Shown here piece by piece: positions 2,065 through 32,000 of a DNA stretch of 32,000 bases. The position numbers were made by a program, and so were the translations under genes. Below the pieces are notes generated by a model that saw only the letters and a list, made by a program, of their open reading frames with translations, searched no databases and was not told where the DNA came from. Origin of the DNA: Promethearchaeum syntrophicum (GTDB lineage: Archaea; Asgardarchaeota; Lokiarchaeia; Sigyniarchaeales; Promethearchaeaceae); NCBI RefSeq assembly GCF_008000775.2, contig NZ_CP042905.2, forward strand, positions 1,410,001 to 1,442,000. The letters are read 5' to 3'. The first letter of the stretch is position 1, and every line of letters starts with the position of its first letter.

Positions 2065-2120
2065 ATTTTGAAATAAGTCTATAGAATCTTGAATTTGTGA
2101 TAAATTAAAAAAGAAAGTGG

Positions 2121-9761: not shown

Positions 9762-11774
9762 ATGATTTTAATATTAAACATAATATTCTTTCTTTGTTGG
9801 TTCTTGTTTTCTATTAGTCCGGGGATTATTTTATTTCATTCGCTTTATCACAATGTTGAGAGAATAAAGATTACTTACTTACCATGGTATTTTTCATTAG
9901 GGGTCTTAATTACAACGCTTTTAACTTTATTAATATATCTAATTGGTTTTTATAGTATCTTTGGAATTGTATTATTAATAATTATATTTGATTTTACGAT
10001 TTTGATTTTAGATTATAGAAAGAAAGGGGCAGATTTCTCCAATAATCCATTGAAATTTTGGATAAATAAATACTTTAAATTTGAGAAGAAATTTGATAAT
10101 CAAAAATTAAAGCTGATAAATAGAAATTCTATTTTATCAGGGTTTTTATTTATCTCTGTTTTAGGAGCAATATTTTTTATTATATTAAAATCTAAATACC
10201 CTCAACTTGATACATGGTATTATTATCATATGATTATGGATTTAATGAATTTAAAAATCGATATAATCAAAAATTTTCAAATCTATGTTGATTCCATTTT
10301 AAACTCAAACTATATATCATTTTACTTATTAATGATATTATCACCATTTTCATATAATTTTCATATTATAATTCTGACATATATTTTTCCATTTATTCAA
10401 ATTTTTTTATTAATGTTAGTGATTAAATATATTTGTAATAAAATTTTGAGAATTAAACCTTATTTATCGTATTTAATCTTCTCTGCTAGTGGTTTTTTAA
10501 TAACATGGATGAGTTTTACTTTACCCTCATCAATTTGTATTATAGCTCTTTTACTTTTTATTATCGAAAAATATTATAAAGATTTTGGTGATAAAAAACT
10601 AGTTATATTAAATTTATTTTTAATATTTTTATTTCACAGACCAACATTTTTTATCTTAACTATTGTATTTCTTTTATTTGAAAGCAAAAATATTGTAAAA
10701 ATGATTAGAAAAAATAAGAAAAATTTAAAGATCTTTTATTTAATAATTTTTTCATCTATAATTACATGTATATTATTGCAAATTTACTTTCAGACTTTCA
10801 CTTTGCTATTTTCACGAATTGGTGGAACATTATCGGAAGAGAAACAGGCTGTATTGATTCCTCCAACATTTAGTGAATGGGTTTTGAAGATGTCAGGTGG
10901 ACCAATTATTTTCATTTTTAGTATACTTTATCTTGTTTTTATTTTGATTGAAAAAAAGAAGCATCTTGAATCAAAAATAAGATTTTTAAATTTTCTTTAT
11001 TTTTATATGATTTTTCTAATTATTATTTGTATTTTTAATCCTACGTGGGCGCTGATATCAACTCTTCCTTATAATTACTATAGATACTTTATTTATATAG
11101 AATTATTTATGCTCATAATTGCCCCACAATCAATATATTATTTTTTTAATATGTTGAGAAACTTCGATTTTAAAAGAAAAAATTCATGGAGAAAAATAAA
11201 GAATTATACAATGATATTGATTATTTTTCAGATATTGACCATTTCCATTTTTCATTTCTCAAATAATTATAACTTTAATTATTATAATACATTTACACGT
11301 GAGAACCGTATTAAAGCATGTGAGTGGTTAAGAGATAATACAGAAGAAGATTCCATCTATTTAATAATCCCAAATCGACAAATTGTTTGGGAACATCGAT
11401 ATTTTCGTGCAATTTTATATGATCGACATATAGTTAATTATAATGATTATTATTATACATTTGGGAATCAAGATAAAAATTCAACAGATTTTCTCGATAA
11501 TTTTAAATCATTTTTGATAAATGGCACTAAGTTTCTAATCTCGACTGGTATAACATTAATAGAAAATAGTTCGATGACAACTGATTCAATAAACTATCTT
11601 ATGTTAGATTCAATTTCAGATTATCATTTGTATTCTATTCTACTTAATGATACTGATTTTACTATGATTCAATCTTTCCCAACTGTTGAAACACTGAATC
11701 GGAATTTTGATGATAGACTTTACATCTATTTTAACATTACAATATTTGCATTCAGAGAGAAATTAGCTTTGTAA
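9762..11774 (+). CDS. Large polytopic membrane protein, GT-C-fold-like glycosyltransferase candidate (paralog A)
   Basis: 670 aa. Layout: N-terminal 3-helix module, K/N-rich linker, a TM helix followed by the acidic/aromatic loop LDTWYYYHM (Asp at nt 10209), many further helices, and a C-terminal ~190-aa soluble domain. It is clearly paralogous to the ORF at 31111-32000 (SGGPIIFIFSILY vs LSGPLIFIFGITY; ILYDR in both). The CDS is near-certain; the function is tentative. Confidence 0.55.
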   Translation: MILILNIIFFLCWFLFSISPGIILFHSLYHNVERIKITYLPWYFSLGVLITTLLTLLIYLIGFYSIFGIVLLIIIFDFTILILDYRKKGADFSNNPLKFWINKYFKFEKKFDNQKLKLINRNSILSGFLFISVLGAIFFIILKSKYPQLDTWYYYHMIMDLMNLKIDIIKNFQIYVDSILNSNYISFYLLMILSPFSYNFHIIILTYIFPFIQIFLLMLVIKYICNKILRIKPYLSYLIFSASGFLITWMSFTLPSSICIIALLLFIIEKYYKDFGDKKLVILNLFLIFLFHRPTFFILTIVFLLFESKNIVKMIRKNKKNLKIFYLIIFSSIITCILLQIYFQTFTLLFSRIGGTLSEEKQAVLIPPTFSEWVLKMSGGPIIFIFSILYLVFILIEKKKHLESKIRFLNFLYFYMIFLIIICIFNPTWALISTLPYNYYRYFIYIELFMLIIAPQSIYYFFNMLRNFDFKRKNSWRKIKNYTMILIIFQILTISIFHFSNNYNFNYYNTFTRENRIKACEWLRDNTEEDSIYLIIPNRQIVWEHRYFRAILYDRHIVNYNDYYYTFGNQDKNSTDFLDNFKSFLINGTKFLISTGITLIENSSMTTDSINYLMLDSISDYHLYSILLNDTDFTMIQSFPTVETLNRNFDDRLYIYFNITIFAFREKLAL

Positions 11775-11890
11775 CTAATAACCTATAATGATGAAATTGC
11801 ATTCAGATGTAGCTATGTGTATCTTCTTAATCGATTAATAAAAAGAAAAGTGTCTCAGATATAAACTAAAATTATTAATTAATATTGAAG

Positions 11891-12220
11891 AGGAAGTTAA
11901 TTGCGGAGGAAAGAAATATAATGAATTGGATAATTTTCTTATTCAATGAAAGTATAGATATATGGTTTTTATAACCCTAATTATCCAAGGAATAGAATAT
12001 TGATAAAAGGATTATAAAATGATGGTGTTAAAATATATGAAATTAATGAACCATTTAAACAATACTATAAACTTAGCTTGCAAAATTTAAAGAACTTATT
12101 ATGGGTTACTTTTAAAATAATAAAAAAATCATTTAATCTTCCAAAAGTTGATTATATTATCATTTTATATCCTGGTTTTAATTCATTTTTTTTAGCAAAA
12201 TTCATTTCTAAATATAAATT
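11891..12220. repeat. Direct repeat copy A (about 330 bp): duplicate of the upstream region plus first ~90 codons of the GT gene at 14978
   Basis: Aligns without indels to 14923-15252 at a constant offset of 3032 nt. By eye it is roughly 80-85% identical. It includes a 43-nt perfect match (12120-12162 = 15152-15194). Confidence 0.85.
11946..12220 (+). pseudogene. Truncated, nonsense-containing fragment of a GT1/GT4-type glycosyltransferase gene (copy of the 5' end of 14978..16117)
   Basis: In frame from the ATG at 11946 it reads MKV*IYGFYNPNYPRNRILIKGL*NDGVKIYEINEP...KKSFNLPKVDYIIILYPGFNSFFLAKF. The intact gene reads MKVCLFGFYNPNYPRNRILVKGLYNNGVELYEINEP...KKSFNLPKVDYIINLYPGFNSFFLAKF. There are two in-frame stops (codons 4 and 24), and homology ends after about 90 codons. 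The track ORF 12078..12278 is the tail of this fragment. Confidence 0.8.
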
Positions 12221-12384
12221 ATTATCAAAATGTCAATTAAATAAATTTCATAAAAACGTGAAAGCTACGAATATTTAAAAATACAAACAAAGTGTTTGGG
12301 ATAATTTGGCAAAATATTTTTATTTCAAATTGCTAGATTCTTTAAATTAATTAATACGAAAAAATTCTATTATTATGGAATATA

Positions 12385-14667
12385 TTGAAAAAGAAAAAAA
12401 AAAAAATTTTTACACTGATTATTGTTATCATATTTTTAACTATATCTAAAGAATTTCCTAGAATACTACCAGAAATGGAAAATTTTCAAGGAAAAGAAAA
12501 TTCAAAAATTCAAAATAACTACGAAAATCAAGATATTTTAACTAATTCAATAAAAAGATTAATTTATTATCAAAACGCAACAGTAGATCTATCATATTAT
12601 TATTATCCGAGTGATAATTTTATTTGGGATCAAGAAGAAAACGCCTTTTATTCAGAATCAAGTGATTTACAGTTTGAAAACCAGTTACCTTTCACAGATT
12701 ATGGTTTTGAACTTAATATTATAGCTTGTAAGAAATTACTGTCATCTAATGCATCAATTTCTTTTTATGATTATTTTAAGAGAAATGTTTATTTTTCAAT
12801 TTTTTTTTCTCAAATTATGAGAATTGAAGCAAATTCAGAAAAATGTTCTAAATCTTTTACGATACTTTATGATTTAAACAGTGATTATGTCCAAATTCGG
12901 ATTAACTTTCATGATTCTTTGTTAAATGTTTGGATTGAAGGAGAAAAATATGGGCAATTCGAACTTATCGATTTTGCAGCAAACCAATTAAATACTCTTA
13001 ATATTTCAGCCAATCTTTCAATTAATGCCATGAATATTTATAGTTACATTAATGATTGCCAAGAGCAATCAAACCCAATATATAATTATGATGTATTGGT
13101 TAATGATTTTTTGATCAAAAATGCATATCAATCACTTAATTTTCAGAATGAGGATGGATCTTTTAAAGATGGATTTGATGCATATAATAAATCTGGTTAT
13201 TCAATTTCAATCACATCTATGGAAATAATAAAAAGTTACTATGCCTTTCTCATAACTCATGATAATTTCTTGTTAGAATCTGTGAATAAATCTGTTAATT
13301 ATCTAACTAATAAATCATTCTTAATTAATACCTCATTTGGTCTTTCTTATGGGGAAGGAACATCTTTAATCAATGATTTAGCTAGACCATTAATTGGTTT
13401 AGTCTATATTGGTATCTTTGAGGATCGTTTAGGTTATAATAATTTTCCTAACTTGGTTCCTTTCTTAGATGATATTGTTCAGTCAATTATTTATAACGAA
13501 ACAATGGCAAGTATTTTAAATGTAAATGAATGGAATTCTCAAAACTGCATTAATCAACAATTTCAAGCATCTACAGTAATTTATTTATGGGCTATGACAC
13601 GAAATTTCACGAATGTTCATGAAAATCATAGAAAACTGATTCATAACTTTTTAGTGCAATCCCAAAATGATGATGGCTCTTGGAACTATTTTGCAAATTA
13701 TATTGGTTATGAAAAAAAACCTCTATCTTTTGTTTACAATATTCATATTTTGTTTTCATTTACAATGATAAAGTTTTTCTTTCCAAATGATCCTATTTTC
13801 TCTAATTCTACAATATTAGCGTCAATTAATCAGTTTATACAATGGATAGAGTACTTACTCCCCAGTTTTGCATATAATACGAACTATTATGGGGATATAA
13901 AACTAAATATTGATTATAATTATGAAAAAGAATTCCATCATATCCTTGGATTTGCAGGAATTCGTTTTTTTGACGAATTCTTAAATAATAAAAGCATGAA
14001 AAATTTACCATTTCAGATGTTTTATGATAATTTCTTGATAAAACCTGAAACTGTCGATTATCGTGAAGGGATATTAAGTAGTAATTCACTTATTGATGCT
14101 CTTTCTTATCGAATGTTTTTATTCTTCAATTCTACAGAACTATATGAAATACATATAAGTGATGCAGATAGAGATGCTGATGGCGATGGACTCTTGGATG
14201 GTGATGAAGTTTCTCTATATTATACTTCCCCCTTCTTAAATGATACCGATGGTGATGGGCTCTTGGATGGTGATGAAGTTTTTTTATATTATACTTTGCC
14301 CCTCTTAAATGATACTGATGGTGATGGGCTTTTGGATGGTGATGAAGTTTTTCTATATTATACTTTACCCCTCTTAAATGATACTGATGGTGATGGACTT
14401 TTGGATGGTGAAGAAGTTTTATTATACTTTACTTCTCCTCTCTTAAACGATACCGATGGTGATGGGCTTTTGGATGGTGATGAAGTTTTAATATATAAAA
14501 CAAATCCTTGTATTAAAGAAAGCTTTGGAACATTATTTCTAATCTTTTTAAAAGAATCTTGGCAAAGTATGATAATCATTTCGGTATATTTGTCATTAAG
14601 CCTATTTGTTCTCACTAATAAAAACCTAAGTGAAAAATTGAAATTAAGAAAAAATTTCACTTATTAG
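12385..14667 (+). CDS. Secreted, C-terminally membrane-anchored surface protein: signal peptide, unknown N-domain, probable alpha/alpha-toroid (prenyltransferase/SQHop-cyclase-like repeat) region, 5 TSP3/EF-hand-type Ca-binding repeats, TM anchor
   Basis: 760 aa. N-terminus KKKKKKIFTLIIVIIFLTIS resembles a signal peptide. QNEDGSFKDGF and QSQNDDGSWNYF resemble the QxxDG(S/G)W repeat of prenyltransferase/terpene-cyclase-like toroids. Five copies of DTDGDGLLDGDEVxLYYTxPLLN follow. The C-terminal helix SMIIISVYLSLSLFVLT is followed by a basic tail. The start is TTG at 12385 (see the poly-A finding). Confidence 0.7.
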   Translation: MKKKKKKIFTLIIVIIFLTISKEFPRILPEMENFQGKENSKIQNNYENQDILTNSIKRLIYYQNATVDLSYYYYPSDNFIWDQEENAFYSESSDLQFENQLPFTDYGFELNIIACKKLLSSNASISFYDYFKRNVYFSIFFSQIMRIEANSEKCSKSFTILYDLNSDYVQIRINFHDSLLNVWIEGEKYGQFELIDFAANQLNTLNISANLSINAMNIYSYINDCQEQSNPIYNYDVLVNDFLIKNAYQSLNFQNEDGSFKDGFDAYNKSGYSISITSMEIIKSYYAFLITHDNFLLESVNKSVNYLTNKSFLINTSFGLSYGEGTSLINDLARPLIGLVYIGIFEDRLGYNNFPNLVPFLDDIVQSIIYNETMASILNVNEWNSQNCINQQFQASTVIYLWAMTRNFTNVHENHRKLIHNFLVQSQNDDGSWNYFANYIGYEKKPLSFVYNIHILFSFTMIKFFFPNDPIFSNSTILASINQFIQWIEYLLPSFAYNTNYYGDIKLNIDYNYEKEFHHILGFAGIRFFDEFLNNKSMKNLPFQMFYDNFLIKPETVDYREGILSSNSLIDALSYRMFLFFNSTELYEIHISDADRDADGDGLLDGDEVSLYYTSPFLNDTDGDGLLDGDEVFLYYTLPLLNDTDGDGLLDGDEVFLYYTLPLLNDTDGDGLLDGEEVLLYFTSPLLNDTDGDGLLDGDEVLIYKTNPCIKESFGTLFLIFLKESWQSMIIISVYLSLSLFVLTNKNLSEKLKLRKNFTY
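14161..14508 (+). repeat. Tandem repeat, 5 copies of a 69-bp (23-codon) unit inside the surface-protein CDS
   Basis: The GATGG(T/C)GATGG core recurs at 14179, 14248, 14317, 14386 and 14455, an exact 69-nt period. Copies 2 and 3 differ at only 4 of 69 positions. Each unit encodes D-T-D-G-D-G-L-L-D-G-D-E, a perfect EF-hand-loop/TSP type-3 pattern. Confidence 0.95.
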
Positions 14668-14678
14668 ATTTAAGGATG

Positions 14679-14686
14679 TTTTTTTT
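14679..14686 (+). terminator. Oligo-T tract (T8), putative archaeal-type transcription terminator
   Basis: A run of 8 T begins 12 nt after the stop codon at 14665-14667. Oligo-T tracts act as terminators in archaea. AT-rich background limits confidence. Confidence 0.3.
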
Positions 14687-14922
14687 GAAATTCTTTCTAA
14701 TAATTTCTTGATTATCTTTTCTCTTAAAACCTGCAACCCTTTATAACAAAAACTTAAAAAAGAACCATATTAAAATAATTTTTATATAATAAAATTACAA
14801 AATAAACCTTTAGTTCTCAAAAAAGTATATTGTTTTCCTATTTTTTTATTCTTAGTTATTTGCATGTTCTGTACTGAAAAATAATTAGCTAGTAATCTTA
14901 GATATTTGATAAAGTTATTAAA

Positions 14923-15252
14923 AGATAGTTAAGGGGGAGTAAAAAAAATTTAATGATATCAATAATTATCTCATTCAATGAAAGTTTGCTTATTTGGTTT
15001 TTATAATCCAAATTATCCAAGGAATAGAATATTGGTAAAAGGGTTATATAATAATGGAGTTGAATTATATGAAATAAATGAACCATTAAAACCAAACTAT
15101 ATACTTACCTTCCACAATTTAAAGAGCCTATTATTTGCTACATTTAAATTGATAAAAAAATCATTTAATCTTCCAAAAGTTGATTATATTATCAATTTAT
15201 ATCCTGGTTTTAATTCATTCTTTTTAGCAAAATTTTTTTCTAAATATATCTT
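14923..15252. repeat. Direct repeat copy B (about 330 bp): native upstream region plus 5' end of the intact GT gene
   Basis: Partner of 11891-12220 (see copy A). Confidence 0.85.
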
Positions 15253-16117
15253 CCATACTCCTTTAGTTTATGATCCTTTTATATCTCTCTATAATACTTG
15301 GGTAAATGACTATAAAATTCTAAATAGAGATTCTATTTCTTCAGTTTTATTAAGGGTTTTTGAGAAAATTACATTTGATAAATCAGATATACTATTAGCT
15401 GATACATATCATCATAAATATTATTTTTCAGAAGAATATAAAATACCACTTTCAAAGATTTTTAATATTTTTATTGGGGCTGATTCTCAAAAATTTTTTC
15501 CAATAGATCCAAAGAATTTTGCTCTTAATGAAAAATTTTCTAAGAATAAAGGAAAATTTATTGTAAGCTTTATTGGGGGTTTTATTCCACTTCAAGGTAT
15601 AGATTTTATATTAGATGCTGCGAGGATCTTAAATCCTTATAAAGATATTATATTTGAAATAATTGGGGGAATAAAAGGAAATTTACTATTTGAAAAAGCG
15701 AAAAAATTTAAAAAAATACATCAATTGAATAATATAATTTTTTATAATTTTCAACCTCTTGATGAGTTAAAATATTTCATAAATCGTTCAGATATACAAT
15801 TAGGAATCTTTGGAGAATCCTTTAAATCAAAGATTGTAATACCAAATAAGGTATTTCAGGCAATTGCATGTAAAAAAACAGTAATAACTGCAAAAACTCC
15901 CGCTATAAAAGAACTTTTTACTGATGGTAAAGATATAATTCTATCTAAACCAAAATCTGGAAAATCTCTTGCATCAAAAATTTTATTTCTTTATGAAAAT
16001 CAAAATTTAAGATTAAAAATTGCACAGAATGGTTTTTATACATATAAAAACCTTTTAACACCTAAAATTCTAGGATTGAATTTTAAATTTTTTCTGGAGT
16101 CTAATTTAAATGCATAA
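14978..16117 (+). CDS. GT-B fold glycosyltransferase (GT1/GT4-like)
   Basis: 379 aa. N-terminal beta-strand start MKVCLFGFYNPNYPRNRILVKGL. The C-terminal half has FIGGFIPLQGIDFILDAA and IPNKVFQAIACKKTVITAKTPAIKELF, typical of the Glycos_transf_1 donor-binding domain. The stop overlaps the start of the next gene (ATGCATAA, 16110-16117). Confidence 0.7.
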   Translation: MKVCLFGFYNPNYPRNRILVKGLYNNGVELYEINEPLKPNYILTFHNLKSLLFATFKLIKKSFNLPKVDYIINLYPGFNSFFLAKFFSKYIFHTPLVYDPFISLYNTWVNDYKILNRDSISSVLLRVFEKITFDKSDILLADTYHHKYYFSEEYKIPLSKIFNIFIGADSQKFFPIDPKNFALNEKFSKNKGKFIVSFIGGFIPLQGIDFILDAARILNPYKDIIFEIIGGIKGNLLFEKAKKFKKIHQLNNIIFYNFQPLDELKYFINRSDIQLGIFGESFKSKIVIPNKVFQAIACKKTVITAKTPAIKELFTDGKDIILSKPKSGKSLASKILFLYENQNLRLKIAQNGFYTYKNLLTPKILGLNFKFFLESNLNA

Positions 16118-17627
16118 CCATGTGTCTTCCTCATCTAAGAATAATAGTCTATATAAATCAGTTATTGTGATCACAAGTTCTAAAATTATAACTCAACTGA
16201 TTTATTTCTTAGGAAGATATGTACTTCTCATAAATTGGATGAATGAAGAAAGCAATGTAGATTTCATTATCTTTTTTCGATATAGTGAAATTTTTTATGC
16301 ATTTATTTTAATTGCTCCTATTGTAATTCCTAAATTTCTAAATGAGGAAAAAAAAGAGGAATTTGAGAAAATAATTTCTCCATCTCTCTCAATTTTTCTA
16401 ATCAATTTATTAGTAATTATTCTAGCAATTGTAATTTTTGCTTTTTTTTTAAAATCCCAGATTCCTCAAAATTATTTGATATATTCTATCTCTTTATGTT
16501 TTTCGACAGTAAGTTTGGGATTAATGAAATATTTTGAGAGTATTTTATATGGTTTTAGAAAAAATAAAGAGATAATTGCATTAAATATTGGATTAACTTT
16601 GGGTTTCTTATTATCAATTATGATTTTTCATTATTTTTTTATTCTTTCTTTATCTGAAGCCATTATATCATATATAATTGCTAATTTTATTGCTATGATA
16701 ATAGGCTATATATTTTTAATCAAAATCAAAAAAAAATTAAAAGCAAAAATTTCATATTTTCACTTTAAAAAACAAAAACAAGATTATAGAGACTTAATAA
16801 TTCTTGCATCACCAATTATGTTAAGCGGATTAGCTTATATTATTAATTTTAGAATAAGTACTCTGTTTTTACAAGATTTTCCTGATGAATATGTTATTTT
16901 TTTTGAAATATCTTCAAGTTTAATAATATATATAATTGGATTTTTAGGTATTCCAATTCATGATGCAGTTTTTCCTTACCTAAGTTACTCTTATAAGGAA
17001 AAGAATTTTAAAAATATCAAGGAGATTTATTTTTCTACACTTTTTATAATTAGCTCAACATTATTAGTAGCTTTAATAATTTTTTTTTCTTATATTGAAT
17101 TTTTTGTTTTAATTATTTATCCTGAATATCAAAATGATCTTTTTTACAACTCTTTTAGAATTTTAATTATTGGGGGCTATTTCTATGTTTTAAATCAATT
17201 TATTGCAAGATATCCTGTTGCAGACGGAAATTCCAAAATACTCTTTTATAATCAAATAGTTGGTGCATCTGTAAATATTATTTTTATTATTTTCTCCACC
17301 TCTTTTAACGATTATAATTTCTTGCTTTGGGGTTTCACTATTTCTAATATAACAATGTTCATCGTTTATTTTATTGATTTTTGTAAAGTTTCCTCCATCT
17401 CATTAAAGAATTCTAAAATTTTGGAATTGTCTATCAGTTTTTTTAGTCCATTATTTATATTTTATCTTCTTAAAACAGTGAATATCAATCAAATTCTAAG
17501 CGGGATTATTGTTATATCGTTATATTTTGCCTTGTTAGTTTTATTTAAGATACTAAGAATTCATCAAATAAAAGAAATATTTTCAGTTTTCCTGTTTTCT
17601 AAAAATAAAAGTAAAGAAAAAAAATAA
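16110..17627 (+). CDS. Second Wzx-like flippase (MOP superfamily polysaccharide biosynthesis protein)
   Basis: 505 aa, about 12-14 hydrophobic helices by eye, with Wzx-like size and N-terminal region. There is an 8-nt overlap with the upstream GT gene, suggesting co-translation. Confidence 0.55.
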   Translation: MHNHVSSSSKNNSLYKSVIVITSSKIITQLIYFLGRYVLLINWMNEESNVDFIIFFRYSEIFYAFILIAPIVIPKFLNEEKKEEFEKIISPSLSIFLINLLVIILAIVIFAFFLKSQIPQNYLIYSISLCFSTVSLGLMKYFESILYGFRKNKEIIALNIGLTLGFLLSIMIFHYFFILSLSEAIISYIIANFIAMIIGYIFLIKIKKKLKAKISYFHFKKQKQDYRDLIILASPIMLSGLAYIINFRISTLFLQDFPDEYVIFFEISSSLIIYIIGFLGIPIHDAVFPYLSYSYKEKNFKNIKEIYFSTLFIISSTLLVALIIFFSYIEFFVLIIYPEYQNDLFYNSFRILIIGGYFYVLNQFIARYPVADGNSKILFYNQIVGASVNIIFIIFSTSFNDYNFLLWGFTISNITMFIVYFIDFCKVSSISLKNSKILELSISFFSPLFIFYLLKTVNINQILSGIIVISLYFALLVLFKILRIHQIKEIFSVFLFSKNKSKEKK

Positions 17628-17812
17628 TTGTTATTTATCATATCTTTCTAATTAAAAAATTGATTTATGTGCTATTGAGTGTTATCTTATAGATATTTAG
17701 TATTTTTTGATATGATTAATTCCCTTCCTGCTTTACTATATATTTATTCGGCTCCGAAAGTTATAATAGAAAAAATATTTAATGGAAGAAAATTTGGAAA
17801 AATAGAAAGAAG

Positions 17813-19753
17813 ATGATTGAATATTTACCCCATTCAATATTTGAAATAATTTTATCCTTTATTATCTTCCATGCAAATGGCTTTATTCTATTTAGACTCC
17901 TATTTAAAAAATATTCTAATACAATACTCCAAAATAAGAAATATTTTCTATTTTATTGTAATATTGTCTTAACGAGTATTTCTTTCAACACTATTATTGG
18001 CTATTTTATATATTATCTAATGCCAAATAATGTTAAATTTTATAATATTATTCTATGTATTTTCTATTTCTTATTTTTCTCAAAAGAAATTTATAATTAT
18101 TATAATGAACTAAACAGAAATGAATTTTCCAAAATAGAAATCAAATCTTTTCTCTATAGAATAAAAATGAATTTTTTTTATAATCTGAAAAAAAAAAAAA
18201 TAATTAACTTTTTATATTTCTGTATCGTTTTTTATTTTCTATATTTAGCATTTAACCTATTCAATCGAAATGCTTTTGAATATTACAATGTGCCAATGAT
18301 TGACACTCTTGATACCATGTATTTTATGCAAAATGCTATAATAAAAAATACATTCAATTTTGAATTGTTAGCAAGTTATTATCCTTTGGGGTTTTATTTT
18401 AATATGATTTTTTTAAATATTCATACTCCCACAACGGTTTTTTGGTATATTAGATATTTTTCTATTTACCTTTCTCTTTTCAACTTATTCATTCTATATG
18501 GTTTGTTCAAAAGAATGACTAAAAATAGATGGATCCCATTTATTTCTATTTTAATCTTCATTTCATCTAATTCCATTATTGGTACAGCTATATATACCTA
18601 TGCAAACAACTTAGGTTTTGTGATCTCAATTATTACACTAATGAATGTGATTGAAGATGATATTTCAAATCCAAAATTTGTTGGTATGACTTCAATTGTT
18701 GGTATTTTAATTCATACAATTTGTGGAGGGTTTTTAATTCCCGCGATAATTTTGTATTACTTATTTAATTCAAAAAATAATAAAAAAAAAAAAAGAGATT
18801 TACGTATTATTATGACCTTTTTTTTTTGTTTTCTTATTCTCTTTTCTATCTCCTCATTACCTGATATATTAAATTCTATTGGAAATAAAATTTCTAGTGG
18901 AGTGGGTGATAATATCCCAAATACAAATTTAGGAATTCAATGGGATTTTTCAGTAGATTTTGAAAATTCATTATATTATATATTGTTTTCAGGAATGAAA
19001 TCATATTTCCATTATTGGATATTTTTGTATGTATTTGCTATTAAAAGATATAAAAAATATTTACCAATCATACTAACGCTTACTTTTGAAGTAATGATTT
19101 ATTATTTCTTACCTATAACCATAAATGGAGTATGGATTAGAGATATTTTTTCTTTTTATTACCCGTACTTCCGTTATCCTTTTACAGTCAATTTTTTATG
19201 GAATTTTTCAATAATTCTAGGATTAGAATCTTTATATTCAATAATAAAGAATATTTATAGAAAACTGAATGAAAGAATGGTATTGGATTATAGATACAAT
19301 TTTGCTACTTTAATGAATAATTTTAAAGTAGAATATTTTCTAATTTTTTTTATAATAATTTCTACATATAACTATATTCCCTACTATAATGCAAGTCAAA
19401 GGTTTGCCATTCTAAATAGAAATAGCCATATCCCAATTGGTTATCAAGAATGTTTGCTTTGGACAAATTATGAAATTGGAAATATGAATGATGTAGCGAT
19501 ACCTAATTCTTTATTTTCGCATTCTATCGAAGTTTTGAATAGATATTACGTAGCAACCGCAGTTTCATTGAATTTAATAAAATATAACTATTCAAATGAT
19601 ATCAGTAGCGATCTAATAAATTCTGTTGATTTCATAATAATCGATAAACTTAACTATAATTCGAATCTAAAACCTAAATTTACTTATGTTGAATTAGAAG
19701 AATTATTTTTATCCATCGATGGTAATTATTATGTGTTAAGAATCACCATTTGA
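17813..19753 (+). CDS. Large polytopic membrane protein, GT-C-fold-like glycosyltransferase candidate (paralog B)
   Basis: 646 aa with the same layout as paralog A. Layout: N-terminal 3-helix module, K/N-rich linker (..FFYNLKKKKI), a TM helix then the loop MIDTLDTMYFMQ (Asp at nt 18311), many helices, and a soluble C-terminal domain (GYQECLLWTNYEIGNMNDVAIP; compare RIKACEWLRDNTEEDSIYLIIP in paralog A). Confidence 0.5.
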   Translation: MIEYLPHSIFEIILSFIIFHANGFILFRLLFKKYSNTILQNKKYFLFYCNIVLTSISFNTIIGYFIYYLMPNNVKFYNIILCIFYFLFFSKEIYNYYNELNRNEFSKIEIKSFLYRIKMNFFYNLKKKKIINFLYFCIVFYFLYLAFNLFNRNAFEYYNVPMIDTLDTMYFMQNAIIKNTFNFELLASYYPLGFYFNMIFLNIHTPTTVFWYIRYFSIYLSLFNLFILYGLFKRMTKNRWIPFISILIFISSNSIIGTAIYTYANNLGFVISIITLMNVIEDDISNPKFVGMTSIVGILIHTICGGFLIPAIILYYLFNSKNNKKKKRDLRIIMTFFFCFLILFSISSLPDILNSIGNKISSGVGDNIPNTNLGIQWDFSVDFENSLYYILFSGMKSYFHYWIFLYVFAIKRYKKYLPIILTLTFEVMIYYFLPITINGVWIRDIFSFYYPYFRYPFTVNFLWNFSIILGLESLYSIIKNIYRKLNERMVLDYRYNFATLMNNFKVEYFLIFFIIISTYNYIPYYNASQRFAILNRNSHIPIGYQECLLWTNYEIGNMNDVAIPNSLFSHSIEVLNRYYVATAVSLNLIKYNYSNDISSDLINSVDFIIIDKLNYNSNLKPKFTYVELEELFLSIDGNYYVLRITI

Positions 19754-20273
19754 TAAGCATTTACTCAAAATTTTTAAGTGAAATTCTTGAAGCATTATCA
19801 AATTAAGAGAATAATGATGCAATTTATAATTATATTTACTACGCATACTACTCATTTTAACCCTTTCTTGAATATGAATGTCACATATAAAAAATTTAAA
19901 GCATTTATTGCCTCCGAGAAAATATTGGACGGACATTATAAGCCAAGTTTAACCGGTCGGTCGGTTTAATCCGCCTGCAAATTATTGGCTAACAGCGATT
20001 TGTTTTTTTATAGTCCCACATTTCCGATCGATTGGTCGAACTTTAAGCCCTTATCTGTCCTAATTCATTAATATGTGTTTAGTCTTATCTGCATTGATTT
20101 TAAATCTTTAATTCATGCAACATTATTTTCAAAGTTGAATCTATACGAATCAATTGAGATCTTAAAATTGTATCCTTTACTTCAAGTTTGATTCCTTAAA
20201 CTGAAGAGAAATTGATTTTGAATCAATAATAATAAAAAAACTTATGAAAAAGAGATAGTTATGTATTATAATA

Positions 20274-21605: not shown

Positions 21606-21615
21606 TTATTTCTTT

Positions 21616-22650: not shown

Positions 22651-22663
22651 TTTTTATTCTATC

Positions 22664-23602: not shown

Positions 23603-23978
23603 TTCATTTCACCAATTTTTAAATTTTTTGCAATCAGATTTGAGTAATCGAATTTGATTTTGAATTTAAAAAATTTGTAGATATTAATTTAAATATAGGA
23701 ATATGATTTATATTTTTTCATATGAAGATAAATTAATCTGGCATTCATTGCAGTCATCTAAATTAAATATTACTGGATTTTAATAAATTAATTCATTCGA
23801 CTATTGGAAATCTCAATATTTGATGTTAGAGATGTTTTTGTTTGATCTTCTTTCATAGTGATGTTTATGAAATATTGACAAAAATAAATATGAGAGATAT
23901 CAAGATCTGGAAAGCAAAATAAAAATGATTAATTGTCAAAAAGTTAAAGAATTATTATAAACAACGTTAGTTAGTGAA
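23603..23978. promoter_or_regulatory. Divergent promoter region between the SDR operon (-) and the GT4 pair (+)
   Basis: 376-bp non-coding AT-rich spacer between divergently transcribed gene blocks. No specific element can be resolved with confidence. Confidence 0.35.
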
Positions 23979-25208: not shown

Positions 25209-25227
25209 TATAAAAAAGCAACCCAAT

Positions 25228-26397: not shown

Positions 26398-26489
26398 GAT
26401 TTAGATTTTTGAAAACCCTAAAATAAATGAATATATCGTATATTTTAATTTTGAACTTAAGAAAATTGAAATGAATCCTTTGATATCTC

Positions 26490-26499
26490 TTTTTTTTTT
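26490..26499 (+). terminator. Oligo-T tract (T10) in the convergent intergenic region
   Basis: A run of 10 T lies about 90 nt downstream of the stop at 26397, between convergent genes. It is a possible oligo-T terminator for the + strand GT4 operon. Confidence 0.25.
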
Positions 26500-26509
26500 G
26501 CTTATTTTT

Positions 26510-28717
26510 TTAAAATTCTGGAATTATCCAAAAAAGTGTCTTCTTGTTGTTGGATACTCCAATTCTATTCAAATAATTCAAATTGTTATATTCATGGAAT
26601 TCATTATGTGTAAGTATTCCATAATCTTTTCCATCTAAGAGTAAAATACCTCTTGTTATATCAATATCCCCAATTAGAATATATATATTATCAGATTTAT
26701 TTAAATCATAAAGTTGCTGTAAATAATTAATTTCAGTTCCATTCTCAAAGACGTTTGTATGATTTTCAGAATGAAGATAGTAACCTAATTCATAAGAAAA
26801 GCTTGCATTGTTTGGATTAGAATTCATTTCGAAGAAATAATTAAATGGATATGACCAATGAAAATTACCAATAATTAAAACTGTGGTCGAATAGGAATCA
26901 GAAAAATTTTCCCTATTAGAATAAAAAACTGTTTGTTCAATGAAACTACCTTCAGAATTAGTTATAAAATCTGAGAAATTTGCTTGGTAACATACACTAG
27001 AAAGGGTATGAGTAAGTAAAATAACTAGTAGAATCTTGCGATTTCTTGGATTATTTAGCCAATATTTAAAATTATACAAAATATAAAATCCTAAACCTAG
27101 GAAAAAGATAGGAATATAAAGTTGAATCATTCTAACAATAAAAGTATGAACAACTTGAAGAATTATTAAAATAACGAGAATCACAAGGATTCCAGTAAAA
27201 TATAGAAAATTTAATTTTCCAATTAAACTATATTTTCTATAGATTTGAATCCCAATAATACTTGCTGATATTATTATGAGAAAAAAACCAACTTCAATAG
27301 CCATTATAGCCACATTTGCAGGAAAAAACCCTTTTAATTTGATATTAAGATAAATATAAACAATGGGACCTATAATGATAAGAAGCGGAACAATAAATTT
27401 TCGATAATATTTCTTTTCAATAATAATTGCTTTATTAGTAGAATCAAATAATATTGAAGATGGCTCATCAATTGAATAAGTCCATTTATGAGTTCCCTTT
27501 TCAAAAATATAAAATAAAAATCCAACTAGAGGAATTATAATAAATATAACCCACCAGTAATTGATGAATTTTGAAGTTGTTAGCGTTATCGTCCAATAAA
27601 AATCATTTATAAGATTTATGATGAACAATACTGAGAAAAAAATCAAATCTTTTAGAAATTTGCGAGATTGAATTGTAATTATAATTAAAGAAAACAATAA
27701 AGGGATTAAATAAACCAAAGCATTAATGCTATGAACTATAATTATAGATAGAATTAATATTGATTGAATAAGGTAATATAATCTGTTCTTTTTCAATGAA
27801 AATTTATCATTAAACTTTGTTAGTTTAAATCTTTCATAAAAAAAACTATACATCTGTAATCCAAAAAAAGTAGTTAAAGCAGTTGGCCAGTACTGAGAGA
27901 AGTTTAAAATTGTTCCAAATATCGTTATCGTAAAGAGAAATGTGATTAAAATTGATAAATTCTGATTTCTGATGATTTTTTTTATGAAACAATAAAAAAG
28001 AAAACAGCCAAAAGGCAATTGAAAAATTCCTATAAATCTGGCTAAATTTAATGTATCTAATCCTGAGAATAAAGAAAAAACACTCCCAATAAAGTGATAA
28101 GATAATTCTCCAAAATATATTTTATTATCAGAAATTAACCCATTATCTAAAAAATCGTTAGTTAAGCGCATGTGGAACCAAACATCATCATAACCAACAT
28201 AAGGATTACGGAGGCTTATGAAAAGAGATAATATTAAAAGGAAAAGTAAAAGGTAGAAAGTATTGGAATTTAAAATGAATTTAATGTGAGAAACTAAAGT
28301 GGGTCGATGGTGTTTAATTATTTCATTTTGATCATCATTATTGGGGACTTTATTATGGAAATTCTTACGAAAATAATAAAAACTTAAAGAAATTGCCACA
28401 AAAGAATAATTTATAACAGCAATCGGTAATTTATTTAATGGAATCCACGTTTTTATAAAGATTAAGCTCACAAATACCCAAAAACTCAAGCTAAGAACAA
28501 TTGCAAATAAAAACCGTTCAATATTTATTTCCTCGAAATAATTGATTAGAATCACTAACCCTGGTAAAACAAACAAGAAAATAAATGTCATAAATATATT
28601 TAAGAGATTTAACATTTGGATATCAAGATAAATAATTAATGACCCAAAAATACTTAAAAATATGAATATCAAAGCCCTACGTTTAAAAATTTTATTTTTT
28701 AAGCCTTGAAATTGCAT
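26510..28717 (-). CDS. Large polytopic membrane protein, GT-C-fold-like glycosyltransferase candidate (paralog C)
   Basis: 735 aa. Layout: N-terminal 4-helix module, N/K/H-rich linker, a TM helix followed by RNPYVGYDDVWFHMRL (Asp-Asp at nt 28184-28189, minus strand), many helices, and a soluble C-terminal domain. No WWDYG. Confidence 0.5.
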   Translation of the reverse strand: MQFQGLKNKIFKRRALIFIFLSIFGSLIIYLDIQMLNLLNIFMTFIFLFVLPGLVILINYFEEINIERFLFAIVLSLSFWVFVSLIFIKTWIPLNKLPIAVINYSFVAISLSFYYFRKNFHNKVPNNDDQNEIIKHHRPTLVSHIKFILNSNTFYLLLFLLILSLFISLRNPYVGYDDVWFHMRLTNDFLDNGLISDNKIYFGELSYHFIGSVFSLFSGLDTLNLARFIGIFQLPFGCFLFYCFIKKIIRNQNLSILITFLFTITIFGTILNFSQYWPTALTTFFGLQMYSFFYERFKLTKFNDKFSLKKNRLYYLIQSILILSIIIVHSINALVYLIPLLFSLIIITIQSRKFLKDLIFFSVLFIINLINDFYWTITLTTSKFINYWWVIFIIIPLVGFLFYIFEKGTHKWTYSIDEPSSILFDSTNKAIIIEKKYYRKFIVPLLIIIGPIVYIYLNIKLKGFFPANVAIMAIEVGFFLIIISASIIGIQIYRKYSLIGKLNFLYFTGILVILVILIILQVVHTFIVRMIQLYIPIFFLGLGFYILYNFKYWLNNPRNRKILLVILLTHTLSSVCYQANFSDFITNSEGSFIEQTVFYSNRENFSDSYSTTVLIIGNFHWSYPFNYFFEMNSNPNNASFSYELGYYLHSENHTNVFENGTEINYLQQLYDLNKSDNIYILIGDIDITRGILLLDGKDYGILTHNEFHEYNNLNYLNRIGVSNNKKTLFWIIPEF

Positions 28718-28824
28718 ATTTTTCTCTCAATTTTTCGTAAATAATTAATTAACATTCTTTTATCTATTATATTCATGTCATATTTTTCTTTTGAGTTTTT
28801 TCAAATGATTCGCATTAAATTTAT

Positions 28825-30855
28825 TTATTGATTCTTTAATCTAACTTGGTTGAATTCTTCAAGATCTTTCTTAACAAGCAAACGAGTCATTTTGGTTAGA
28901 ATTATTAATCCTAATATTGACGCGATTGAATAATTTACAACAAAAAATGCTAAGTTTTGAAGAAAAGTTTTGTAAACTTCAATTGATATTTGATAATATA
29001 AATCATAATATGCATCTGTAAAAAATATTTGATATTCTGAAATTTTCTCAATATCTGTAATTAATTCTGTTCGGAATGGGGTATTATTTGTCCAAACAGC
29101 CATACCTCTACTTATATTTGTAATTAAATCTCCATCTTCCCAAATAACAAAATAACCCTTAGAATTATCGGCATCAGTAATTGTCCAATTAATAAAAATA
29201 TTCGGGGTGTCATATTTCACTCGAAAACTAATATTAGAAATAATATTCGGTTCTTTTGAGTATCCAATTGCAAAAATAGATGATTGCCTAGTCAAATTTG
29301 AACTTTTATATTCAATAATATAATAGTAGTAACTCGTTTTATTGAAATAATCCTGAAAAGACAAACTAAAATTATTTGACTTCGAATAAAGCAAATTACT
29401 TTCAGAAGTATCGAATAAGGGAACTTTTTCTCTGTATATATTAATTATGCCATTGATTTCTTCCCAATTCCATAATGGTGGGATCCAAGAAAGATTGAAT
29501 GATGAATTATCTGTTGGATTTGATTGAGAATCAATAATTGGAGCAGAAAGACCATTTCTATATAAGTTTACAATCAAAAAATCCTTATAATTATTCCATT
29601 TCATGTTTATAACAATATTTTTTGACTCGAATCCAGCTGAAATAACAGTAATAAAATGCATTCCTTTTTCTATCCATGGGATAGTATGTTGTGTGAATGA
29701 ATTGATTTTAGCTCGATACTTTAATGATTCTGGAAATTTCAAACCTGACCCATTATAAATTTGCAAAAAAATACTCCTTTTAATAATTTCTTCATTATCG
29801 AATCCAAACGTTTTAACTATGATATTTAAAGATCCGGAATTGTTTAATGCTTGAATCATAGGTGGATTCAATGTAATGATTGAAACTTCTTTAATTATAA
29901 TATAATTTGAATAATCAGTGAAATTTGGACAAAAAATCTTAATTCTGTAATTTCCAATTGGCAAATCATTAAAAACGATTGTATTATTATTTGAAAATGC
30001 ATAGGATCGATATGATAAGATTTCATTTGATAATAATGCCAAAGCAGGATAATCATTTTGAAAATGCGTTGATAAATTAATGTTTAAACTCGAAGGATAA
30101 TTTGGTTTTAAAACAATATTTTTGTGAATTTCTAAAATTTGACTTTCATAAAAAAACTTGAATTTCTCACCGATATCTTGAAAATAGTGACTTTGAATAT
30201 TAAATAGATATTTTTCATTGGCTTTTAGATCTTTGATTTGTATGTCCGTTGGAGATGTTGAAAGAAATTTCTTAAATATTGTCCCATTATCTTCAAAATA
30301 AATAGTTACATTAAATTGATCTACATGATCCACAAGAACTTCATTAAAAAGATTTATAATTATTTCACAATTATATGAAAGTTGTTTTTCTAAGAAGATA
30401 TCAATAAATAACGATTCATTTGGATCCACGATATTAAATGTTTTATAATTATCTTGAAATCCTGGTTTACTTAAAGTAATGTTGTAAGTTCCACTATTTA
30501 ATATTGTAAAATTGCCAAAACCATTCCCATCGGAATATTTAGAAGATACATTTTCATTTTCTGCATTAAAAATTTGAATTAAGACACCACCAAGATCAGT
30601 TGATTCATTCAAATCTTTGATAAAAATGAATAAATTATCTCCCACATAAGAAATATTTGAAGGGAACTCAAAATTATCTGAAGATTTTGGTATTGTTCCA
30701 TAGTTGTAATTATCATAATGACTATTTATATCACAACTATATTCATTCAAATTTCCATAATTTAAAGTATTAAGATTCTGAACAAGAATTAGTGTTGATG
30801 ATACAAAAATTAGATAGAATATTAAAATATAATATGAATTTTGGTTATCTAACAT
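28825..30855 (-). CDS. Cell-surface (S-layer-candidate) protein: N-terminal signal/anchor, several carboxypeptidase-regulatory-like/PEGA-like beta-sandwich repeats, FN3-like region, C-terminal TM anchor with basic tail
   Basis: 676 aa. The N-terminus YYILIFYLIFVSSTLILV is hydrophobic. GGVLIQIFNAENENVSSKYSDGNGFGNFTILNSGTYNITLSKPGFQD is a typical CarboxypepD_reg-like segment, and LPIGNYRIKIFCPNF is a second one. The C-terminus is FFVVNYSIASILGLIILT plus KMTRLLVKK. More than 20 N-X-S/T sequons by eye. Confidence 0.65.
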   Translation of the reverse strand: MLDNQNSYYILIFYLIFVSSTLILVQNLNTLNYGNLNEYSCDINSHYDNYNYGTIPKSSDNFEFPSNISYVGDNLFIFIKDLNESTDLGGVLIQIFNAENENVSSKYSDGNGFGNFTILNSGTYNITLSKPGFQDNYKTFNIVDPNESLFIDIFLEKQLSYNCEIIINLFNEVLVDHVDQFNVTIYFEDNGTIFKKFLSTSPTDIQIKDLKANEKYLFNIQSHYFQDIGEKFKFFYESQILEIHKNIVLKPNYPSSLNINLSTHFQNDYPALALLSNEILSYRSYAFSNNNTIVFNDLPIGNYRIKIFCPNFTDYSNYIIIKEVSIITLNPPMIQALNNSGSLNIIVKTFGFDNEEIIKRSIFLQIYNGSGLKFPESLKYRAKINSFTQHTIPWIEKGMHFITVISAGFESKNIVINMKWNNYKDFLIVNLYRNGLSAPIIDSQSNPTDNSSFNLSWIPPLWNWEEINGIINIYREKVPLFDTSESNLLYSKSNNFSLSFQDYFNKTSYYYYIIEYKSSNLTRQSSIFAIGYSKEPNIISNISFRVKYDTPNIFINWTITDADNSKGYFVIWEDGDLITNISRGMAVWTNNTPFRTELITDIEKISEYQIFFTDAYYDLYYQISIEVYKTFLQNLAFFVVNYSIASILGLIILTKMTRLLVKKDLEEFNQVRLKNQ

Positions 30856-31110
30856 CTCTGATAATTACTATTATATTTTTTTATTGAAAAATTTTTTTCA
30901 AGGTAATGAAAATATGGTGTTAAAGAAAAATCTCTAAAATCGGGTATTACCAATAATTCCAATAAAAGCAATTTCAATAATCTGAAATTTCAAAATATTT
31001 TTTCATCCCTCGTTTTTATTACTTCAAAGGTGTCAGTTCTATTCAAAATTTGGTATTTTAAACAGGTTCCAGCAGTATCTCTTTTAAAATCCATGTTATT
31101 TCAAAAGTTT

Positions 31111-32000
31111 TTAATATTGTATCTCAAAAATAGATAAACTATAGTTTAAAGGATTAATCGTTTTAATATTAGAAACATAATAATCTTGAACATATTCATG
31201 ATAAATTTCGATGAAAGATGGGCTATCCTTAATTAATTCATACAAATCTTCATTAAAAACGGATTCAATTACCAAATATTTTACTGATTTTTCGGTAGTA
31301 TATATTTTTTCTGACAAAACCCTTCCATTCTGCCTCAAAACCTTTCTAGAGTAGTTAAGATAATCAATCAAATCATTTAGATAATTATCGAGATAATAAT
31401 ATCTATTAAGTAAAGTATTAAACAAATATTTCGATTCATTAAATCCTACAACATAGCGATCGTACAAAATTGATTGACTAAAGGCATTAAGGGAATTTGA
31501 AATTGGATGAGGAAGAATCAAAATCAAATCATCATGACCTGTGTTTTCTTTCATCCAAATATAAGATTCGATATGTTCATCTTTGACATAAGCATTGAAG
31601 AAAAAGAAAGAGTAATTTGAACTAATATGAACAAATGAATATAATATTATCTGTAATAGTATCGCTCCTTTAATATACTTCAAAATTGTAGTTTGTTTCT
31701 TGTTTTTAAATATTTTTTTTTTTAGAAATGAACTTATTTTTGGAATCCAATATTTCATTGACACTGGTGCAATTATTATTAAAGATACATCAAGAAATAT
31801 GAAATATCGATAAAATATGTATGGGAAAAAGCTGATCAAACTCCAATATGGCAATAACAAGCAAATTGCTAATAATAGAAGTGTGAAAATATAGGTAATT
31901 CCTAAAATATTTGTATTGACTGATAAATTTGTCCTTTTTTTATTTTTTCTATAGGGATATGTTATACCAAAGATAAAGATTAAAGGACCAGATAATTGAG
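31111..32000 (-). CDS. GT-C-fold-like polytopic membrane protein (paralog D), C-terminal part only; gene continues beyond the window end
   Basis: The reading frame stays open upstream of the listed start (31860) to nt 32000: ..QLSGPLIFIFGITYPYRKNKKRTNLSVNTNILGITYIFTLLLLAICLLLPYW. That stretch aligns with SGGPIIFIFSILYLVFILIEKKKH.. of paralog A. The C-terminal soluble domain shares W(M/L)(K/R)(E/D)NT, (L/I)I(L/I)P and ILYDR with paralog A. Confidence 0.6.
   Translation of the reverse strand, partial: QLSGPLIFIFGITYPYRKNKKRTNLSVNTNILGITYIFTLLLLAICLLLPYWSLISFFPYIFYRYFIFLDVSLIIIAPVSMKYWIPKISSFLKKKIFKNKKQTTILKYIKGAILLQIILYSFVHISSNYSFFFFNAYVKDEHIESYIWMKENTGHDDLILILPHPISNSLNAFSQSILYDRYVVGFNESKYLFNTLLNRYYYLDNYLNDLIDYLNYSRKVLRQNGRVLSEKIYTTEKSVKYLVIESVFNEDLYELIKDSPSFIEIYHEYVQDYYVSNIKTINPLNYSLSIFEIQY

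Follow-up and report, generated by a model that had tools for sequence, protein, structure and literature searches.

The known consumers of polyprenyl-phosphate monosaccharides are glycosyltransferases of the GT-C fold that act on the outer face of the membrane, in what are described as three-component systems (PMC11127046). In bacteria, these systems combine a polyprenyl-phosphate sugar synthase, a flippase and a GT-C enzyme, which carries an external domain after its first core transmembrane (TM) helix and sometimes a C-terminal carbohydrate-binding module (CBM) (PMC11127046). An archaeal three-part set is known from Haloferax volcanii, comprising the dolichol-phosphate-mannose (Dol-P-Man) synthase AglD, the Wzx-like flippase candidate AglR, and AglS, a polytopic membrane enzyme that adds the sugar outside the cell (PMC3871713). 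Here we analyze a stretch of 32,000 nucleotides (the window; contig NZ_CP042905.2, positions 1,410,001 to 1,442,000) that an exact-sequence match assigns to Promethearchaeum (Prometheoarchaeum) syntrophicum MK-D1, covering roughly genes DSAG12_0186x-01881, and which encodes four large polytopic membrane proteins, referred to below as A, B, C and D. We hold, with somewhat more confidence than doubt, that A and D are outward-facing GT-C fold glycosyltransferases, as probably is B and, at a greater distance, C, and that they belong to families known so far only from the Promethearchaeota. MK-D1 is the first Asgard archaeon in culture. No known organisms are more closely related to eukaryotes than the Asgard archaea; to our knowledge, their glycobiology is almost unexplored.

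All four open reading frames (ORFs) described in an initial annotation of this DNA are present in the window. Protein A (DSAG12_01868, 670 amino acids [aa]) is encoded at 9762-11774 on the forward strand, the orphan protein B (DSAG12_01872, 646 aa) at 17813-19753 on the same strand, and protein C (DSAG12_01879, 735 aa), which represents a second family, at 26510-28717 on the reverse strand. Protein D, also on the reverse strand (31111-32000), comprises the last 295 aa of another A-family paralog, whose gene runs past the end of the window. The translations bear out the common architecture that had been described, with an N-terminal hydrophobic module, a linker rich in K, R and N, a TM helix followed by an acidic and aromatic loop, a series of further helices, and a non-hydrophobic C-terminal domain, which had been put at about 180-200 aa and measures about 150-200 aa. 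The loop motifs that the annotation had singled out were likewise recovered: LDTWYYYHM of A starts at nucleotide 10206 (D150 at 10209), DTLDTMYFM of B lies at 18302 (D167 at 18311), and GYDDVWFHMR of C lies at 28195 (D177/D178 at 28189-28184). By hydropathy, B and C contain many TM segments, and a poor structural model of C likewise shows many long helices.

The four proteins had been described as paralogs of a single family, a view that BLASTP does not support, as it shows only A and D to be paralogs (32-33% identity over 265 aa, A residues 379-636, E 1e-30). By the same method A and B reach only E 0.016, and neither A versus C nor B versus C gives significant similarity. Profile-profile comparison of the A and C families gave an hhalign probability of 86% when 9 sequences were used and 95.5% with 22 sequences (E 1.4e-8), aligning residues 11-309 of A with 46-342 of C. 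On these alignments, the homology between A and C is limited to some 300 residues, which cover the N-terminal module and half of the core; between the two C-terminal domains no similarity is seen in a shuffle test (z = -0.4). Within the aligned part, a D-x-W-x7-D/E motif falls in register between the two families (D150...D160 in A, D178...D188 in C). The N-terminal module of three TM helices is common to the A and C families and, by hhalign, to neighboring proteins of about 720 aa in other genomes, and it contains an invariant Pro-Gly pair (P20-G21 in the first helix of A, 18/18). The sequences thus fall into an A/D family, a C family that is its distant relative, and B, which is probably a very divergent relative of the A family.

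In protein A, the three-TM N-terminal module is followed by a linker (aa 85-122) containing 11 K/R, a core TM helix and a predicted external loop 1 with D150-x-W152-x7-D160; further on come H292, the W429/P436/R441-Y-F signature and an alpha/beta C-terminal domain (aa 501-670). About 13 of its helices have membrane-spanning length and hydrophobicity, 10 of them after the N-terminal module. The A-family alignment contains 22 sequences, made up of relatives from an exhaustive search, one locus from GTDB and six metagenome loci, and two of its members are high in guanine plus cytosine (GC). The candidate catalytic acidic motif, D150 to D160 (D-T-W-Y-Y-Y-H-M-I-M-D; 10209-10241, forward strand), stands at the start of loop 1. 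Conservation of the acidic-loop Asp among orthologs had been set beforehand as a point on which the proposal could fail; the residue is Asp in 20/20 A-type sequences at D150 and in 7/7 C-type sequences at D178. At the other two positions of the A-type motif, W152 is W in 18 sequences and Y in 2, and D160 is retained in 19 sequences and replaced by E in 1.

Elsewhere in the A family, H292, W429, P436, R441-Y442-F443, W522, P537 and K590 are invariant or nearly so. Five of these residues (W429, P436, R441, Y442 and F443), invariant in 21/21 A-type sequences, belong to a W-x6-P-Y-x-Y-Y-R-Y-F motif (W429 to F443; 11046-11090, forward strand) that occupies a short K/R-free loop before the penultimate TM helix, where R441 is a candidate ligand of the donor phosphate. 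Protein D carries the corresponding W-x6-P-Y-x-F-Y-R-Y-F motif together with a W-x-K-E-N-T...P motif. The C family comprises 7 sequences, the protein's own entry and six homologs, all of which retain R170, D178, W180 and H182 (7/7); its acidic first-loop motif runs from D178 to D188 (D-V-W-F-H-M-R-L-T-N-D; 28154-28186, reverse strand). An ortholog of C at 79% sits among genes for a sugar epimerase, a UDP-sugar dehydrogenase, a 2-epimerase, a GT2 and a GT4. UniRef labels C and its Lokiarchaeum ossiferum homologue as 'Glycosyltransferase RgtA/B/C/D-like domain-containing', a label that is not reproducible with Pfam-A.

The membrane topology of the A family was derived from the numbers of K/R and D/E in each loop across the alignment, and so from the positive-inside rule only. 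The linker (6-11 K/R) and the loops TM5-6, TM7-8, TM8-9, TM10-11 and TM12-13 are K/R-rich in nearly all members, whereas loop 1 (2-3 K/R versus 4-9 D/E), TM6-7, TM9-10 and the C-terminal domain are acidic or free of K/R, and the W...P..RYF loop has 0-1 K/R in every member. Because loop 1 is net acidic and follows a K/R-rich linker in every member, the rule places it outside. The acidic loop and the C-terminal domain had both been claimed to be extracytoplasmic, and the counts agree; in the A family, both of these parts and also the RYF loop would thus be non-cytoplasmic. In both A and C types the conserved Asp lies 7-9 residues past a TM helix, and 5/6 of the N-x-S/T sequons of A are in its C-terminal domain.

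An AlphaFold2 model of A, built from 9 sequences, has a mean predicted local distance difference test (pLDDT) value of 64.7 and a predicted TM-score (pTM) of 0.66, with confidence that is low for the N-terminal module and the linker but ranges from moderate to good for the core and C-terminal domain. In this model, loop 1 forms three short helices (149-164, 172-182 and 184-193), which is typical of external loop 1 in GT-C enzymes. When the model was compared with the PDB by Foldseek, the top match was human ALG9 (9s6s; E 3.3e-4, probability 1.00, 583 columns, TM-scores 0.34/0.40) and the second was AftA (8if8; E 0.09, probability 0.95, 523 columns), at sequence identities of 9-12% and TM-scores of only 0.34-0.40. 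The O-antigen ligase WaaL (7tpg) ranks twelfth, at E 0.69, probability 0.11 and TM-scores of 0.12-0.17, and all full-length matches other than ALG9 and AftA, among them WaaL, ABC transporters and channels, are at noise level (transporters at probability <=0.1). The C-terminal domain alone matches generic alpha/beta folds of the methyltransferase-like kind. The initial annotation had named Wzy-type polymerases, ligases and transporters as the assignments that a structure search might favor instead; for A, where this comparison applies, GT-C enzymes are the sole credible full-length matches, and this one moderate model suggests that A groups with them and not with ligases, polymerases or transporters.

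The rank of ALG9 invites a bolder reading, in which A/D, B and C would be an Asgard-specific GT-C radiation nearest to the eukaryotic transferases of the ALG9/ALG12/PIG type, which act in the lumen of the endoplasmic reticulum (ER) and depend on Dol-P-mannose. As it rests on a single Foldseek ranking, we regard this kinship as improbable. It would make the four proteins archaeal relatives of enzymes whose prokaryotic origin is unclear, and tandem duplication together with the added N-terminal module would then serve to diversify surface glycans on an Asgard cell that lacks an S-layer, a corollary that we take to be just as much of a long shot.

No oligosaccharyltransferase was found among the Foldseek matches of the A model, although many are present in the PDB. 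This bears on the suggestion that the four are degenerate AglB/STT3 paralogs that have lost WWDYG, whether as pseudo-enzymes or as transferases whose acceptor-binding motif has changed. Some archaea have several AglB paralogs, and there are two points of resemblance to STT3: the first-loop D-x-W/Y-aromatic sequence is similar to the STT3 loop D-P-Y-F-N-Y-R, and the C-terminal W-L-x-x-N-T-x3-[DS]-x-[VIY]...P is similar to the W-L-R-x-N-T...WWDYG region. However, neither WWDYG nor a variant of it is present, a six-frame search having found no WWDYG-like motif in any coding frame of the window, just as the initial annotation had reported; and no match to STT3, AglB or PglB was obtained with Pfam or with family profiles run against all PDB sequences. 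The annotation's conclusion that none of the four is a canonical AglB also agrees with the location of the organism's own aglB, DSAG12_01167, elsewhere in the genome (PMC11284389). The AglB-paralog candidate was accordingly rejected on motif, sequence and fold as well as on the existence of that separate gene, and we consider a derivation from AglB very unlikely.

The neighborhood of A provides a further line of evidence for the GT-C reading. On the same strand, 941 bases upstream and separated from A by one small membrane-anchored ORF, lies a 542-aa tandem fusion of two GT2 domains of the DPM1/AglJ/ArnC/GtrB type (DSAG12_01866; 7193-8821, forward strand; two Glycos_transf_2 domains). Its best PDB matches are the Pyrococcus furiosus Dol-P-Man synthase 5mlz (E 7.7e-21), ArnC and the GtrB-like sll0501. 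Among NCBIfam models it scores best with AglJ, PpgS, ArnC and Dol-P-hexose transferase, in no case reaching the equivalog cut-off. Polyprenyl-phosphate monosaccharides are the products of enzymes of this type. The gene was listed as an aglJ homologue in the MK-D1 glycoproteomics study (PMC11284389). We predict it to be a dolichol-phosphate monosaccharide synthase that supplies lipid-linked donors, and its two domains might produce two different ones. A membrane-like hydrophobic stretch follows the first domain, and a clearer C-terminal one follows the second. Double GT2 proteins also flank A-type genes in a contig from another member of the Promethearchaeota (L001, 16788-19004).

Two flippase candidates of the MOP family, both Wzx/AglR-like, are encoded nearby, one at 4673-6154 on the reverse strand (Polysacc_synt_3, E 7.4e-10) and one directly upstream of B, at 16110-17627 on the forward strand (Polysacc_synt, E 9.7e-12); NCBI names the latter flippase candidate 'oligosaccharide flippase family protein'. 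A small flippase gene of the GtrA type was looked for in the window and none was found. A predicted synthase gene and candidate flippase genes are therefore linked to genes for GT-C-like proteins, and since the island holds all three, it has the layout of a three-component extracytoplasmic glycosylation system.

The flippase genes also admit a different reading, in which some or all of the four proteins, especially B and C, are Wzy-type polymerases or WaaL/PglL-type ligases that use dolichol-pyrophosphate-linked oligosaccharides in a Wzx/Wzy-like pathway. Alongside its two Wzx-like flippases and numerous cytoplasmic glycosyltransferases, the island contains no recognized polymerase or ligase; B follows a GT4 gene and a Wzx gene on the same strand, which is the typical wzx-wzy arrangement. 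Wzy proteins are, moreover, very divergent and often match no family model, which would fit the empty Pfam results, and the structural evidence is confined to A. Set against this, no Pfam match to Wzy_C or O-antigen-polymerase models was found, and Wzy and WaaL proteins are about 400 aa long and have no C-terminal soluble domain of 170-200 aa. Protein C shares with A the N-terminal half that holds the candidate catalytic D-x-W-x7-D, A itself matches ALG9 far better than WaaL, and the gene adjoining A encodes a putative Dol-P-monosaccharide synthase, for which a Wzy enzyme has no need. We judge this alternative to be rather unlikely.

Protein B, as a single sequence, gives no significant hhalign match to the A or C profiles. 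It was also compared with window-20 shuffles that preserve local composition, and its match to the A-family profiles exceeds them in two separate regions, the N-core (z 6.4, with 1/1000 shuffles reaching the score) and the C-terminal part (z 3.7, 1/999), which lends modest support to a relation between B and A. At nucleotide 19160, B has Y-P-Y-F-R-Y where A has Y-N-Y-Y-R-Y, and across the six-frame translation of the window the pattern Y-x-Y-[YF]-R-Y occurs in A and B only.

An exhaustive search of 1.84 billion cluster representatives returned 14 relatives of A. The homologues align with A over its full length, and all named relatives are Promethearchaeota; A/D, B and C thus appear, from the databases searched, to be sequence families known so far only from this phylum of Asgard archaea. 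In other Promethearchaeota contigs, A-type genes are flanked by GT4 and GT2 genes and usually occur as 2-3 tandem paralogs. A recurrent cassette is seen in five contigs, L001 (9620-19004), L006, L007, L008 and L009, with a GT4 gene (396 aa) followed by two or three tandem A-family paralogs of about 680-870 aa; where the contig is long enough (L001, L006, L008 and L009), it continues with an almost wholly transmembrane protein of about 711-725 aa and then a GT2-type or unidentified ORF. The family of about 720 aa in this cassette has no counterpart in the window.

Protein A weakly matches DUF6798 over 24 residues at E 0.0037. The 725-aa protein of L001 weakly matches DUF1616 at E 6.6e-6, a score short of the cut-off, and in its N-terminal module it is similar to the C family (hmmsearch E 1e-7; hhalign 70%); no match to DUF1616 (PF07760) or to any other relevant family was found with the N-terminal modules of A, B, C and their relatives. 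The A-family members of about 860 aa (P0014, P0015 and L001 11869-14454) carry a C-terminal extension of about 165 aa. One such extension matches the whole CBM_4_9 model (E 7.3e-5, 23.6 bits versus a cut-off of 25.9), and two further homologous extensions gave no match. Extra CBMs occur in known GT-C enzymes (PMC11127046).

Several findings weigh against the GT-C reading and should be considered together. The four proteins, all members of both families and fragments of the C core were searched against Pfam and NCBIfam without a match to any GT-C family at E <= 10, the curated models including PMT, PMT_2/RgtA-D-like, STT3, Glyco_transf_22, the ALG families and Arabinose_trans; and searches of PDB sequences with C alone and with two A-family profiles returned only a designed coiled-coil artefact. 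The model of C has a pLDDT of 50.5, too poor for classification, and its Foldseek list is noise. An outward topology for A requires residues 278-306, which carry the invariant His at a kink, to form a helical hairpin and not a single span. For B, only its own shortened database entry was found and no orthologs, and its acidic first-loop feature is ambiguous: in the profile alignment, the A-family Asp corresponds to a non-acidic position, with IDTLD ten residues further on. Public annotation has also moved away from the full-length proteins. GenBank gives A as 670 aa (QEE16040.1, one residue different from the window, F393V) and B as 646 aa (QEE16044.1), and RefSeq now gives both as C-terminal fragments only, A having been shortened to 332 aa in an earlier record and to 179 aa in the newest (DSAG12_04155), and B to 412 aa (DSAG12_04160). 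Finally, the published glycoproteome of MK-D1 is sparse, its linear N-glycans being carried mostly by a single solute-binding protein, and the main text of that report, as searched here, mentions neither the four proteins nor the neighboring surface proteins (PMC11284389).

In another alternative, the four proteins would be non-enzymes, that is lineage-specific membrane scaffolds, transporters or envelope-anchoring proteins, with B perhaps a decaying gene and the conserved polar residues serving folding or ligand binding. No curated family recognizes them, B is an orphan, model confidence is moderate to poor, and the RefSeq shortening of A and B could be taken in the same sense. The long form of A is supported, however, because its homologues are full-length, and the similarity of B to the A family falls upstream of the short RefSeq start. 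Invariant Asp, His and Arg residues at the predicted outer membrane boundaries are kept across low-GC and high-GC relatives alike, the best fold matches are enzymes of one class, and the genes lie within glycan-biosynthesis clusters in several genomes. A non-enzymatic role is therefore unlikely in our view. The GT-C assignment of the initial annotation is partly upheld, by the invariant first-loop Asp, the predicted outside topology, the ALG9/AftA fold match of A and the adjacent synthase, and it falls short in curated-family matches and in a usable model of C.

If the GT-C reading is correct, a working scheme can be drawn by analogy with Haloferax AglD/AglR/AglS and the bacterial GtrB/GtrA/GtrC, ArnC/ArnT and CsbB/YfhO systems. 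On the cytoplasmic face, the tandem DPM1/AglJ-type GT2 upstream of A would load a monosaccharide from a nucleotide sugar onto dolichyl phosphate, and the Dol-P-sugar would then cross to the outer leaflet, a step in which either of the island's two Wzx/AglR-like proteins may serve. There the GT-C-like protein would bind the lipid donor at the membrane boundary and transfer the sugar, with the invariant H292 and R441 as candidate phosphate ligands and the first-loop Asp (D150 in A, D178 in C) as the candidate catalytic residue. The C-terminal alpha/beta domain may hold the acceptor, aided in some relatives by the CBM-like extension, and the acceptor could be a protein-bound or lipid-bound glycan or a Ser/Thr of a surface protein. 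The paralogs would then differ in sugar, linkage or acceptor.

Each of the four genes had been described as lying next to a gene for a surface protein. This is so for A, C and D; the neighbors of B encode a flippase and a UDP-GlcNAc 2-epimerase. Downstream of A is DSAG12_01869 (12385-14667, forward strand), which has five TSP3 repeats (TSP3_bac, E 2.2e-16) and a C-terminal TM anchor, and between C and D is DSAG12_01880 (28825-30855, reverse strand), a 676-aa protein with Ig-like, CarboxypepD_reg and PEGA domains by Pfam and again a C-terminal TM anchor. The ORF between the synthase and A (DSAG12_01867; 9152-9736, forward strand) encodes a small N-terminally anchored protein of 194 aa with no Pfam match. 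All three have about twice the number of N-x-S/T sequons expected from composition, with 19 observed versus 9.4 expected at 12385-14667, 23 versus 11.4 at 28825-30855, and 5 versus 2.8 at 9152-9736. The proteins at 28825-30855 and 12385-14667 are possible acceptors, speculatively so in the case of the latter, the TSP3 protein. Within the TSP3 protein, a 69-bp tandem repeat (14179-14496; 4.6 copies, 89% matches) encodes 23-aa calcium-binding repeats of the TSP3 type, DTDGDGLLDGDEV.LYYT.P.LN, and an antisense ORF of 100 aa (14358-14660) is an artefact of this repeat.

The window as a whole, with a GC content of 22-29% throughout, is by its gene content a glycan-biosynthesis island. Domain scans identified a PseB-type UDP-GlcNAc 4,6-dehydratase, a PseC-type aminotransferase and a GNAT acetyltransferase, two GT2 and three GT4 glycosyltransferases, a UDP-GlcNAc 2-epimerase and two NAD-dependent sugar epimerases/dehydratases, in addition to the two Wzx/AglR-like MOP flippases. 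The PseB-type inverting dehydratase (349 bits versus a cut-off of 408), the PseC-type aminotransferase and the GNAT acetyltransferase are grouped at 1552-4285, and the likely product of such a set is a 2,4-diacetamido-2,4,6-trideoxyhexose or a nonulosonic acid. Unidentified residues are reported in the N-glycans of MK-D1, with masses of 304.127, 311.08 and 303.10 Da (PMC11284389). At the start of the window, a soluble ORF of 153 aa (16-477) has no Pfam match; by eye, it looks like the C-terminal portion of a class-III aminotransferase, perhaps from a gene that the window edge truncates.

The sole glycoproteomic study of MK-D1 used homology to identify aglB and Ost3/6, along with counterparts of the cytoplasmic agl glycosyltransferases and of enzymes that act on sugar nucleotides, and outward-facing transferases go unmentioned in the main text of that report (PMC11284389). 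If the proteins described here are GT-C enzymes that receive their donors from the adjacent tandem Dol-P-sugar synthase, then MK-D1 and related archaea would possess a multi-enzyme layer of extracytoplasmic glycosylation, and the proteins would found new CAZy families. D150, H292 and R441 of A and D178 of C are residues on which this can be tested. The shortened RefSeq records remove the putative catalytic halves of A and B from public protein sets. What is new is a set of lineage-restricted, uncurated families, the principle of a GT-C enzyme served by a polyprenyl-phosphate sugar synthase and a flippase being already established in bacteria, haloarchaea and eukaryotes. As the mechanism they most likely use is well known, we class them within it: most likely the families are new but the enzyme class, and the kind of system, are known.

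Compared with AglD, AglR and AglS of H. volcanii, the window contains the same three types of gene, for a GT2 that would charge dolichol phosphate, for Wzx-like flipping and for a polytopic outer transferase. The differences are that the putative synthase is a two-domain fusion, that there are four candidate transferases in place of one, and that these have an extra N-terminal three-TM module and no match to models of the PMT/PMT_2 type for any of A-D. The bacterial systems GtrB/GtrA/GtrC, ArnC/ArnT, CsbB/GtcA/YfhO and GT136 ORF12 are comparable in that the adjacent GT2 matches ArnC and GtrB-like proteins and in the CBM_4_9-like extension of some A-type relatives; unlike them, the window would use dolichol as the lipid, has no GtrA-type gene, and encodes families unrelated to the GT-C families of CAZy at the level tested.

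AglB, STT3 and PglB share with the window proteins a polytopic N-terminal domain, an acidic first loop and a C-terminal domain, external in the former and predicted to be so in the latter, but the window proteins lack WWDYG and match them neither in sequence nor, for A, in fold. ALG9, the ER-lumenal, Dol-P-Man-dependent mannosyltransferase of family GT22, and the mycobacterial AftA are the best fold matches of the A model. Both are polytopic and use a lipid-phosphate donor on the non-cytoplasmic face, as A is predicted to do; AftA also has a C-terminal soluble domain. They differ from A in having no match to it at the sequence level and no N-terminal three-TM module, and the acidic motif of GT22 is different from the D-x-W-x7-D of A.

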